The position numbers and the translations under genes are program-made. A model generated the notes under the pieces. It was not told the DNA's origin. It did no database searches and saw only the letters and a list, made by a program, of their open reading frames with translations. DNA of 19,759 nt from Pseudomonadota bacterium (GTDB taxonomy: Archaea > Thermoplasmatota > SW-10-69-26 > JACQPN01 > JAJPHT01): positions 1-19,759 of the forward strand of contig JAJPHT010000009.1 of assembly GCA_021325135.1 (NCBI GenBank), written 5' to 3'. This document shows positions 5,267-18,933 of the stretch, piece by piece. Each line of letters begins with the position of its first letter. Positions within the stretch are counted from its first letter, which is position 1.

Positions 5267-6226
5267 GTGAAGGCGAAGGCGCTCACCGGCGCGAACCTGG
5301 GCCTGCTCCTCCTCCTGGCGTGCCTGTGGGGCATCGCGTTCATGTTCATCCGGCTGGGCCTCGAAGGGCCCTCCTTCTCGCCGGTCCTCTTCGCCGCGCT
5401 GCGCTTCGACGTCGCGGGCGCCGTGGTCCTCGCCGTCGCGCTGGCGCGCAAGAGCCCGCTGCGCCCCCGGGGCCGCAAGCAGTGGATCGCCATCGGCGTC
5501 GCGGCCGTGTTCAACGTGACGCTCTACCACGCGCTCCTCTTCTGGGGCGAGGTCCACACCAGCGCCGCCGTGGGCGCGGTCATCGTGGGGCTCAACCCGT
5601 TGCTCACGACGCTGCTCTCGCGCTGGCTCCTCAGCGACGAGCGCGTGGGCCTGGGCGGCGTGCTGGGCCTGGGGCTCGGCCTCGCGGGCATCGTCATCCT
5701 GGCGCTCCTCAAGGGGGGCAGCCTCCTGGACGTGCGCGGCGTCGCGGAGCTGGCGTGCCTGGGCGCCATCCTGGCGTGGAGCACGGGCAGCATCCTCGTG
5801 CGGCGCACGCAGCACGGCATGGACGTCTTCGCGTTCACCGCGTGGCAGATGCTCGTGGGCGCCGCGATCCTGCACGTTTCCTCGCTGGTCTTCGACCCCC
5901 TCATCGACCCCGCGCGCGGCGCGTTCGCCGTGTGGGACCTCGACGGCGTCCTGAGCCTCCTCTACCTGGCCGTCGTGAGCAGCGCGGTGGGCTTCGTCAT
6001 CTACTTCACGCTCCTGGAGCGCGTCGGGCCCATCCGCGTGAACCTCGTGAGCAACGTCGCGCCCCTCTTCGCGGCGCTGGCGGGCTTCCTCATCCTGGGC
6101 GAGGCCTTCGAGCTTCGCACGCTCCTCGCCTTCGCCCTCATCCTCACGGGCTTCGTCCTCGTGGCCCGGCCCGCCAAGGCGCCGCCGCAGGAGCCCGCGC
6201 CCCCCATCCCCGCCGAAGAGGGATAG
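5267..6226 (+). CDS. EamA/DMT family transporter, ~319 aa
   Basis: LWGIAFMFIR, FAALRF, LNPLLT...LLSDER and a second repeat YFTLLERVG...PLFAALAGFLILGE; about 10 TM segments. GTG 5267 lies 24 nt after CTTCAT. Confidence 0.93.
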   Translation: MKAKALTGANLGLLLLLACLWGIAFMFIRLGLEGPSFSPVLFAALRFDVAGAVVLAVALARKSPLRPRGRKQWIAIGVAAVFNVTLYHALLFWGEVHTSAAVGAVIVGLNPLLTTLLSRWLLSDERVGLGGVLGLGLGLAGIVILALLKGGSLLDVRGVAELACLGAILAWSTGSILVRRTQHGMDVFAFTAWQMLVGAAILHVSSLVFDPLIDPARGAFAVWDLDGVLSLLYLAVVSSAVGFVIYFTLLERVGPIRVNLVSNVAPLFAALAGFLILGEAFELRTLLAFALILTGFVLVARPAKAPPQEPAPPIPAEEG

Positions 6227-6237
6227 CGCAAGGAGAA

Positions 6238-6339
6238 GCCCGGGCGGCGGCCAGATCGGGGGACGGATGCAATCCGGAGGATTGCGGGGGGTGGGAACCA
6301 ACGGATGAGCAGGACGCTCAGCCAAGGCCCCGCCCGGGC
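6238..6339 (-). ncRNA. Putative ~102-nt structured small RNA
   Basis: Promoter ACAACGCTTAAG on the minus strand (TATA 6363-6368) lies 23 nt before a 14-bp terminal stem with one bulge. Two internal hairpins and a TTCTCCTT tail. No credible ORF in this interval. Confidence 0.6.
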
Positions 6340-6362
6340 AAGGCCGGGTAACAGGAGCGCGG

Positions 6363-6374
6363 CTTAAGCGTTGT
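6363..6374 (-). promoter_or_regulatory. BRE/TATA promoter of the putative sRNA
   Basis: Minus-strand ACAACGCTTAAG resembles GCAACCCTTATT (13876-13887) and CCAACCTTAAT (15595-15605), both upstream of clear genes. Confidence 0.6.
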
Positions 6375-6389
6375 GGGAATGGTCTGGAT

Positions 6390-6416
6390 CGGTCCGGGCC
6401 TTGGGGGCCCGGACCG
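6390..6416 (-). terminator. 11-bp hairpin just downstream of the 113-aa ORF
   Basis: CGGTCCGGGCC-TTGGG-GGCCCGGACCG, 10 nt past the stop codon. There is no strong U tract, so it may be a stabilising or processing hairpin instead. Confidence 0.45.
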
Positions 6417-6426
6417 TGGGGGCGCC

Positions 6427-6768
6427 CTAGAGGTTGAGCCTTCGTTCCAGCTCGCTGGCGCGGGCCATGGGGATGGAGCCCCGCTCCAGCTGGTAGCGGA
6501 CGCGGCTCTTGTCGGCGGTGATCCAGTCCACGTGGGGGCGGCGCTCGCCCTCGAAGGAGACGCCGCCGCGGCCGTGGCCGCGGCTCACGTTGGCGCCCCG
6601 CCTCAGCTGGAGGTCCTGGTCCTTGGCGTCCAGGAAGATCTCCGGGTCGAAGGCGCGGACGCGCTTCCACGACTTCAGCGCCGAGGCGAACCGATTCCGC
6701 CGCTCGGTGCGGGCGCTGTGCCAGTGGTGCCTCTTGTAGGGCTCGTTGCTGCGTCGGGTCTTCGGCAT
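6427..6768 (-). CDS. Hypothetical basic protein, 113 aa
   Basis: MPKTRRSNEPYKRHHWHSAR... Nearly all codons end in G or C, as in neighbouring genes. SD-like GTGGTGA precedes ATG 6768 and a TATA lies upstream. No family recognised. Confidence 0.8.
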   Translation of the reverse strand: MPKTRRSNEPYKRHHWHSARTERRNRFASALKSWKRVRAFDPEIFLDAKDQDLQLRRGANVSRGHGRGGVSFEGERRPHVDWITADKSRVRYQLERGSIPMARASELERRLNL

Positions 6769-6870
6769 GTCACCACTTCCGTCGGATCGGCGGGGTGGTC
6801 CCGGCTGGGATGCCTTCGCGCCGTTCCGACTGGGATGACTTGGGCGCCTGAGTCGATATAATGCCTTCTT
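6769..6870 (-). promoter_or_regulatory. TATA promoter and structured 5' leader of the 113-aa ORF
   Basis: AAGAAGGCATTATAT on the minus strand (6870-6856). The leader stem GUCGGA-A-CGGCG...CGCCG-A-UCCGAC (6830-6781) starts at about the predicted transcription start. Confidence 0.55.
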
Positions 6871-16970: not shown

Positions 16971-17035
16971 ACGGTGAGCAGGAAACCAGGTTCGCACGCC
17001 CAAAGATTATAGGGGAGAGCGAACTTCGGAGCATC

Positions 17036-17088
17036 AGGCCGGGGCCTGAAGCCTCCTCGCACAACCTTCTCCCCCGGCCTTCCTTTTC
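17036..17088 (+). ncRNA. Putative ~45-50-nt small RNA with anti-SD loop
   Basis: CAAAGATTATA promoter (hexamer 17006-17011) lies exactly 24 nt before a 9-bp stem, AGGCCGGGG / CCCCGGCCT. The 27-nt C/U-rich loop contains CCUCCU. TCCTTTT tail. No credible ORF. Confidence 0.55.
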
Positions 17089-17920: not shown

Positions 17921-17967
17921 GCGACCTTGCCTGTCGTCGTTGAAGTCGCCGCAGCGACTTCACACGC

Positions 17968-18055
17968 GGGGGTTTCAGGGGGCGGCAGCCCCCTGACGTT
18001 TCGGCTCTCTGATCAGCGATCAAAACGTCAGGGGGCTTCGCCCCCTGAAACCCCC
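17968..18055. repeat. REPIN-like doublet, copy 3
   Basis: GGGGGTTTCAGGGGGC-loop-GCCCCCTGACGTTT at 17968-18001 and its inverse at 18023-18055 are identical except for the loop; 21-nt spacer. Confidence 0.82.
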
Positions 18056-18933
18056 TAGGTGGGCCCGAACTTCAGCCCGTAGCGCGTGCGCCCCTCCTGA
18101 TCGAAGAGGCGGCGCACGACGGGCCGGAGCTTCGCTCCGATGGGCGGCGCGTCCTCGCCCACGTCCGCGAGGCGCGCGGTGACCTTGACACCCTGTCCGG
18201 GCCACGCGACGACGCCCACCCAGTAGGCGCCCACCTGCGCCTGCTCCAGGGCGAACTCGCTGGGCGCGCCGCCGCGGCCGATGCGCGTCGCGGCGTACAG
18301 CTCCGCCTCGTGGGGGAGCGTGACGTCGTCGAACGCGCGGTCGCGGCAGGCGGGGCACGCGCCGCGGGGCGGGTAGAGCGTCCTGCCGCACGAGCGGCAG
18401 CGCTGCGCGACGAGGCGGAGGCGCGCGGGGAGGTCCTCGACCCACGTCCCCTGGGGCACGTAGGCGCCCATGGGCGAGTCGGGGATCTCCTCCGCGGGCG
18501 GCACGCGGCGCGACTCCTGGAGCGCGCGCAGGGCGCTGACCATGCGCGGCCTGGGCGCGACGGAGCGCGGCGGGCCCGCCTGCTCGACGGGCCCGGGCGG
18601 GCCCTCCACGAGGCACGCGACGGCCCACGCCTCGTCGCCGCCCAGCAGCAGCGTGGGCCCGTCAAGGTCCGCGCTGGCTGCCATGGGGTCGGCGATGGTC
18701 CGGATGGGGATTTTGATGTCGAGCGCCGCGGCGAGGGTGGCGGCGTCCAGCTTGGGGGAGGCCAGGACGTGCCGGGCGTCGTGATATCGGAGGTGGGAGG
18801 CGGCCTCGATGGCCAGGGTCGTGAGGTCCTCGTCCCAGGCCAGGGCGCGCTCGGGCACGGGGTCGTCGCTCGTCTTGGGGTCGACGGACAGCGAGCCCAT
18901 GGCGCGCGCGGCGTCGACGATGCGGCGTGCCAT
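18055..18933 (-). CDS. Degenerate HMG-CoA-synthase-like N-terminal domain fused to DUF35 (Zn-ribbon plus OB-fold)
   Basis: N-terminal ERALAWDEDLTTLAIEAA; C-terminal CRSCG..YPPR..CPAC followed by an OB-fold ending RYGLKF. Starts 1 nt after the thiolase stop codon. Confidence 0.85.
   Translation of the reverse strand: MARRIVDAARAMGSLSVDPKTSDDPVPERALAWDEDLTTLAIEAASHLRYHDARHVLASPKLDAATLAAALDIKIPIRTIADPMAASADLDGPTLLLGGDEAWAVACLVEGPPGPVEQAGPPRSVAPRPRMVSALRALQESRRVPPAEEIPDSPMGAYVPQGTWVEDLPARLRLVAQRCRSCGRTLYPPRGACPACRDRAFDDVTLPHEAELYAATRIGRGGAPSEFALEQAQVGAYWVGVVAWPGQGVKVTARLADVGEDAPPIGAKLRPVVRRLFDQEGRTRYGLKFGPT

Follow-up and report, generated by a model that had tools for sequence, protein, structure and literature searches.

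The window, meaning the whole stretch of 19,759 nucleotides that was analysed, is contig C41 of the genome of an uncultured Thermoplasmata archaeon (3.77 Mb, 71.6% GC, 94% complete), and the relatives of the genome's proteins carry the labels Thermoplasmata or Thermoplasmatota. The element considered here lies in a 200-bp gap between the minus-strand gene of a basic 113-aa protein (6427-6768) and the convergent plus-strand gene of an EamA/DMT transporter (5267-6226), whose stop codon is 12 nt from the 3' end of the predicted RNA. The sequence at the locus is as quoted in an earlier sequence-only reading of the window. An independent assembly from the same organism (Logan contig SRR5581483) is identical across the element, which argues against mis-assembly.

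The 113-aa protein has an Arg/His-rich N-terminus and matches nothing in Pfam, NCBIfam or the ESM Atlas. It is restricted to the archaeon's family, in which 34 matches (itself included) share 44-100% identity and all eight genomes carry the gene, and it is possibly an RNA-binding protein. The leader of this gene (6769-6835, minus strand) forms conserved nested stems whose GAAG junction lies just 5' of the SD sequence, and it shows two-sided changes at eight of 15 named pairs in a rough alignment of seven loci; it is a candidate cis-regulatory RNA. A promoter-like site of 10.3 bits within the last codons (6432-6447, minus strand) is weak in the orthologues (2-5 bits) and probably incidental. 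On the 3' side of the gene, a 10-bp hairpin (6391-6415, minus strand) sits between the gene and the promoter of the RNA, outside the RNA itself, and the orthologous loci also have a hairpin after the gene.

The promoter of the element was scored with a BRE-TATA weight matrix trained on 540 of 1143 gene upstream regions of the same genome. The BRE and TATA box at 6362-6377 (CTTAAG at 6368-6363) reach 14.4 bits on the minus strand, which is higher than 94% of the training promoters, as against at most 4.0 bits on the plus strand. The rate of equally strong sites is 7.7e-7 per position in coding and 1.2e-4 per position in intergenic DNA, and the genome contains 137 sites with a score as high. The modal distance from TATA box to start is 29 for genes (28-30), which places the predicted start at 6337-6339; G6339, the first base of the closing stem, lies at a distance of 28. 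Non-coding DNA lies downstream of 1409 promoter-like sites; in seven of these cases it holds a closed stem and tail (3.1 expected; chance rate per site 0.22%), and the element ranks first among the seven. The independent transcription unit proposed in the sequence-only reading is supported by promoter strength, spacing and tail. Judged from these signals, the element is likely to be really transcribed, and it is very probably a real, separate RNA gene with a product of 102 nt (6238-6339, minus strand).

The minus strand of 6231-6345 folds with an MFE of -55.7 kcal/mol (z -3.99; none of 200 shuffles was as good). As the earlier reading had described, the two ends pair over 14 bp with one bulge and enclose two hairpins. 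The closing helix is formed by a 5' arm at 6326-6339 and a 3' arm at 6238-6252, the latter with one bulged G. Hairpin 1 (6306-6320) has a GUCCU loop and hairpin 2 (6269-6285) has 7 bp and a UCC loop; every pair in both long helices and both hairpins is Watson-Crick. The hairpins are linked by a C-rich tract (6286-6300) that is largely open in the ensemble, and 88% of the unpaired bases of the RNA are pyrimidines. Each hairpin runs into a CAUCCGU motif, a repeated 7-mer that is borderline when taken alone (5.8% of shuffles). Both copies are present, and their accessibility differs in the ensemble: copy 1 (6301-6307) is mostly paired, whereas copy 2 with the adjoining C5 tract (6257-6269) is largely open. 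The RNA is followed by the pyrimidine tail TTCTCCTT (6230-6237), a probable terminator or 3' end of a kind also seen in the trailers of many tRNA genes in this genome; a similar tract precedes the EamA stop in a related locus (L181). The plus-strand fold is no less stable (-60.1 versus -52.9 for the minus strand), so the strand assignment rests on promoter and tail and not on the fold.

A scan of 6231-6374 against Rfam 15 returned no match even at E values up to 5, consistent with an uncatalogued RNA, and given this result the catalogued 5S, C/D and H/ACA families are excluded. The exclusions made in the sequence-only reading hold in other respects as well. ARAGORN finds no tRNA in the window and the fold differs, so that a tRNA or tRNA-like RNA is ruled out; by eye, the element resembles neither tRNA-Trp nor tRNA-Tyr, both of which are missing from the tRNA set of the genome. 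The genes for SRP RNA and RNase P RNA sit elsewhere (contigs C5 and C34). C/D guides carry a C box (RUGAUGA) and a 3' D box (CUGA) or a K-turn, and H/ACA guides end in a 3' ACA; the minus strand of the element has one CUGA close to the 5' end and lacks both a C box and a terminal ACA. Inspection by eye also set aside an HDV-like ribozyme and a K-turn, for which required helices or tandem GA pairs are missing, and two plus-strand mini-ORFs of 13 and 20 codons, the first with atypical codons. The many dispersed copies that would indicate a MITE were not seen: BLAST and nhmmer find a single copy in the genome, and the pair of ends was not found in a homologous form in five relatives. Among the tRNA loci of this genome, the pre-tRNA-Glu(CTC) at C24:101377 (minus strand) is enclosed by a leader-trailer helix of 11-12 bp. 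At C2:26436-26592 (plus strand), an apparent interrupted copy of the 5' part of tRNA-Met (beginning with AGCGGGGT) with a REP-like insert, recognized by eye, lies directly upstream of the intact gene and shares one promoter with it.

Homologues of the element were sought in 20 genomes of the archaeon's class by BLAST, a single-sequence covariance model and a pattern. Only chance matches were obtained, a result to be read as 'not found' because the class genomes are incomplete and a one-sequence covariance model is weak. The chance matches inspected were coding DNA, opposite-strand gene starts or local hairpins. No homologue turned up when G002, the closest GTDB relative, was scanned directly over 1.7 Mb, about half of its genome. 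A pattern scan of GTDB gave one match, in Prevotellaceae, and scans of viral contigs and phages gave none; in metagenomes, where the pattern was too loose, unrelated hairpins were retrieved.

The sequence-only reading had suggested looking for the element downstream of the 113-aa gene in related genomes. At the orthologous loci that were read, hairpins and usually a pyrimidine tract come after the gene, or else another gene does; the element is at none of them. The closest syntenic locus, L181 (94% identity in the 113-aa protein, 88% in DNA), has the same two genes separated by a gap of 89 bp, in place of the 200 bp here, with no promoter and no RNA. The element is likewise absent from L387, where the arrangement is similar with one gene in between, and it does not follow the EamA orthologues. 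At its own locus, a possible target duplication flanking the element would consist only of TT on each side. Recent gain in this lineage is the simplest reading of these comparisons, and loss in the relatives would be the alternative. Behind the closest EamA orthologue lies an array of short GGCACATG/CACGTGCC repeats (L184:3362-3560). In L174, a 12-bp stem with a 28-nt C/A-rich loop, which resembles the loop of a second unit of the window described below, follows the orthologous 113-aa gene (1861-1912), and a 24-nt stretch at 1935-1958 resembles the 5' end of the RNA (p about 0.009) and has no partner arm, tail or correctly spaced promoter.

The element heads a class of about ten units in the intergenic DNA of the genome, which are 36-114 nt long and each have a closing helix, a G-poor interior and a tail. 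Intergenic closed stems of at least 9 bp with G-poor loops have a promoter at an offset of 27-32 some 8-15 fold more often than at other offsets (p 2e-5 to 2e-3, with thresholds chosen after seeing the data and the element itself in the set). The set of G-rich stems shows no significant promoter enrichment, and a partial scan of G002 gave the same promoter-offset trend in small numbers. The sibling units sit in varied gene orientations and show no significant sequence similarity to the element (p 0.07-0.63). The closest in design are C40:94962(+) and C42:101410(+), both of which expose CAU in C-rich loops. C42:101410 is conserved in G002, as is C37:54328(+). The further candidates with promoter, closed stem and tail are C16:29696(-), C46:157833(-), C15:244872(-) and C42:114937(-), and loops in this set are mostly C-rich.

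One sibling lies in the window itself (16997-17088, plus strand). It has a 45-nt closed-stem unit at 17036-17080 with an anti-SD loop and a tail, and a 9.8-bit promoter whose TATA-like site is at the same offset as that of the element. It occurs in three dispersed copies with an invariant loop core (the others at C7:25263 and C26:13821), the copy at C26:13821 adjoins an ORF that by eye resembles a tyrosine recombinase, and the unit is absent after purA in four relatives. Nearby, a long near-perfect GC hairpin at 17966-18057, with similar elements elsewhere (e.g. C26:51231) and spurious miRNA matches, is probably a REP/MITE-like repeat.

One group of such closed-stem RNAs carries two to four tandem AGCCUCC motifs and was found in this genome (C44:58626, C44:60024, C48:6900 and C42:100882) and elsewhere across the archaeon's class (L297, L301-L303, L306, L308, L316, L323 and L339). 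The tandem pattern occurs in all 21 class genomes, with 121 matches as against 21 for a reversed control; of the loci inspected, about a dozen are closed-stem units and the others coding. Among 121 genomes of the phylum searched, the strict form occurs only inside the class. Four orthologues carry an invariant loop in a conserved helix with one two-sided change, and across the archaeon's class the siblings with this motif have invariant loops and varying stems. These RNAs match nothing in Rfam, and nothing relevant on AGCCUCC in archaea was found in the literature searched. The element shares their scaffold, which consists of an own promoter, a closing GC helix often starting with (G)CCCG, a G-poor open interior and a pyrimidine tail. 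Unlike them, it lacks tandem AGCCUCC in an open loop, which excludes membership by motif, has two firm internal hairpins and is not conserved.

Read as the reverse complement, the second CAUCCGU copy together with its C-tract gives a G-rich SD and then AUG, and in G002 a related motif was found as the complement of an apparent SD and AUG of a gene start. The 3' open segment of the RNA forms duplexes below -22 kcal/mol with 32 start regions as against four coding-interior windows. Pairing of start regions with shuffled segments is equally good, so composition explains this preference. The best target is an ABC permease gene (C20:32284) whose start overlaps the upstream stop and whose SD and AUG are covered by a perfect match of 12 nt; this match is not significant, as it is equalled by 29 of 400 shuffles in length and nine of 60 in energy. 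The start contexts at C22:2777 and C44:28640 are similar, and no candidate target beats the shuffled controls. Pairing with SD regions, as put forward in the sequence-only reading, is plausible, with indirect support from the anti-SD repeats of the siblings, and no significant specific target accompanies it. About a fifth of the genes in this genome have an SD-like motif (669 of 3146), and about a third look leaderless (1071 of 3146).

The promoter signal, its spacing, the fold, the tail, the shared architecture and the lineage restriction of the element are computed results. The element has sequence signals for an intergenic promoter and terminator of its own and a C-rich motif predicted to be unpaired, and conservation of motif or structure was not found in the relatives searched. 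From these features we infer an RNA that would be transcribed and stable and would repress targets by base pairing. Tentatively, and at somewhat less than even odds, the element is taken to be a young sRNA acting in trans to mask translation starts; the analogy with RsaE, the cuckoo RNAs and sRNA154 and sRNA41 of Methanosarcina mazei makes such masking of initiation regions its most likely action. With TBP and TFB, minus-strand transcription would begin at G6339, and it would end in the pyrimidine tail near 6230-6237. The 14-bp GC helix would join and protect both ends and hold the pyrimidine-rich multiloop open. The open segments, namely the central C-rich tract and CAUCCGUCCCCC, would then base-pair in trans with the G-rich ribosome-binding site and neighbouring AUG of SD-led cistrons or of internal cistrons of polycistronic mRNAs, and initiation would be blocked there.

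The absence of the element from the syntenic L181 and from all genomes searched, and the longer interval here, are also what would be expected of a young near-neutral unit. Such a unit could have formed when a promoter arose or inserted before a hairpin-rich terminator region, or when a small mobile or duplicated RNA cassette landed, and it might be transcribed and do nothing useful. The three dispersed copies of the 17036 sibling, one of them beside the recombinase-like ORF, indicate that such cassettes can spread. The element, however, is single copy with only TT as a possible duplication, it has the strongest promoter of its class in exact register with the stem, and other members of the class are conserved between species; this origin is considered rather unlikely. 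The RNA might instead be a protein decoy whose two equivalent hairpin-CAUCCGU sites would be presented to a C-rich RNA-binding protein or to a factor that normally handles the 16S 3' end or pre-tRNA leaders. The two modules are near-equivalent, and the siblings with several motifs have a design like that of sponge RNAs. Several pre-tRNA leaders terminate in (G)CAUCC, and hairpin 1 shares 13 nt with the leader-tRNA junction of tRNA-Glu(CTC). Matches of 13 nt are common in this genome, though, the modules are unequally accessible, the neighbouring basic 113-aa protein is unlinked to the RNA in relatives, and neither Ro60 nor CsrA was found in the 94% complete genome. A decoy of this kind is unlikely, and the sponge with two equivalent protein sites suggested in the sequence-only reading gained no supporting evidence.

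The convergent arrangement raises the question of an effect in cis. The 3' end of the RNA lies 12 nt from the EamA stop, and the plus strand lacks a U-tract ahead of the TATA region, so the EamA mRNA probably extends through the element; the RNA or its transcription, overlapping the EamA 3' UTR, could limit or end that transcript. Against this stand the absence of the element after EamA orthologues, the varied gene orientations of the siblings and the closed multiloop, which a cis-antisense RNA would not need, and a cis role is regarded as distinctly improbable. The plus strand might instead be functional, either as a structured EamA 3' UTR or as a processed RNA exposing GGA loops in the manner of CsrB/RsmZ; it folds as well as the minus strand and shows AGGAC and GGA loops. 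This strand, however, has neither promoter nor tail, and CsrA (PF02599) was not found in the 94% complete genome, which argues against a CsrB/RsmZ-type sponge and leaves the plus-strand reading very unlikely.

A trans-acting sRNA thus remains the preferred reading, and the element is probably a new small RNA built like C-rich anti-SD sRNAs and belonging to no catalogued family, as judged from sequence. Its weight is limited by the fact that, taken alone, it is a well-formed orphan that is not conserved. More speculatively, and doubtfully at present, the archaeon's class may run an Hfq-independent regulatory layer of a dozen or so closed-stem sRNAs per genome, built on one scaffold with exchangeable seeds. 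Conserved members of this layer would carry general anti-SD repeats, whereas fast-turnover members such as the element would carry anti-(SD + AUG) seeds for particular internal or SD-led cistrons, and would tip the balance of translation between leadered and leaderless mRNAs. A mechanism is known for few archaeal trans-acting sRNAs, and no such sRNA has been described for this lineage in the literature searched. In one genome, some ten sRNA genes with one scaffold and differing C-rich seeds, beside leaderless and SD-led mRNAs, would form a clean system, suited to asking how archaea regulate two modes of initiation and how new sRNAs arise.

Several known RNAs resemble the element in part. Y RNAs, the partners of Ro60, are also about 100 nt long, with paired ends interrupted by a single bulge and a pyrimidine-rich interior. 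The bulge of the element is a G, however, there is no YrlA match, and the Ro60/TROVE partner protein (PF05731) was not found in the 94% complete genome, which argues against a Y RNA. In size the element is presumably similar to RsaE. The UCCC-box sRNAs RsaE and RNAIII of Staphylococcus likewise have unpaired UCCC or C-rich segments, two per RNA (PMC2790875), whereas the element has an archaeal promoter, ends closed by a helix and no Rfam match, and the searches made found neither conservation nor a significant target.

The cuckoo RNAs of Alphaproteobacteria (alpha-r14/NfeR1 and RSs0680/CcsR) are small, have repeated hairpins that expose pyrimidine anti-SD-like loops, and occur as several paralogous units per genome (PMC4615179), as do the element and its siblings. 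They consist of two to four adjacent hairpins with CCUCCUCCC in each and form no multiloop (PMC4615179). In contrast, the element is an archaeal closed multiloop with GUCCU and UCC loops and CAUCCGU, and it has no CCUCCUCCC; it is therefore not a cuckoo RNA. Among archaea, sRNA154 and sRNA41 of Methanosarcina mazei are both experimentally supported, and sRNA154 is conserved across Methanosarcina (PMC5867862), whereas the element is an orphan with no Rfam match. Both are, like the element, intergenic archaeal sRNAs with a loop-borne anti-RBS sequence. On polycistronic mRNAs, sRNA41 masks internal sites (PMC5867862), an action that resembles the one predicted for the element at its best candidate target, C20:32284.
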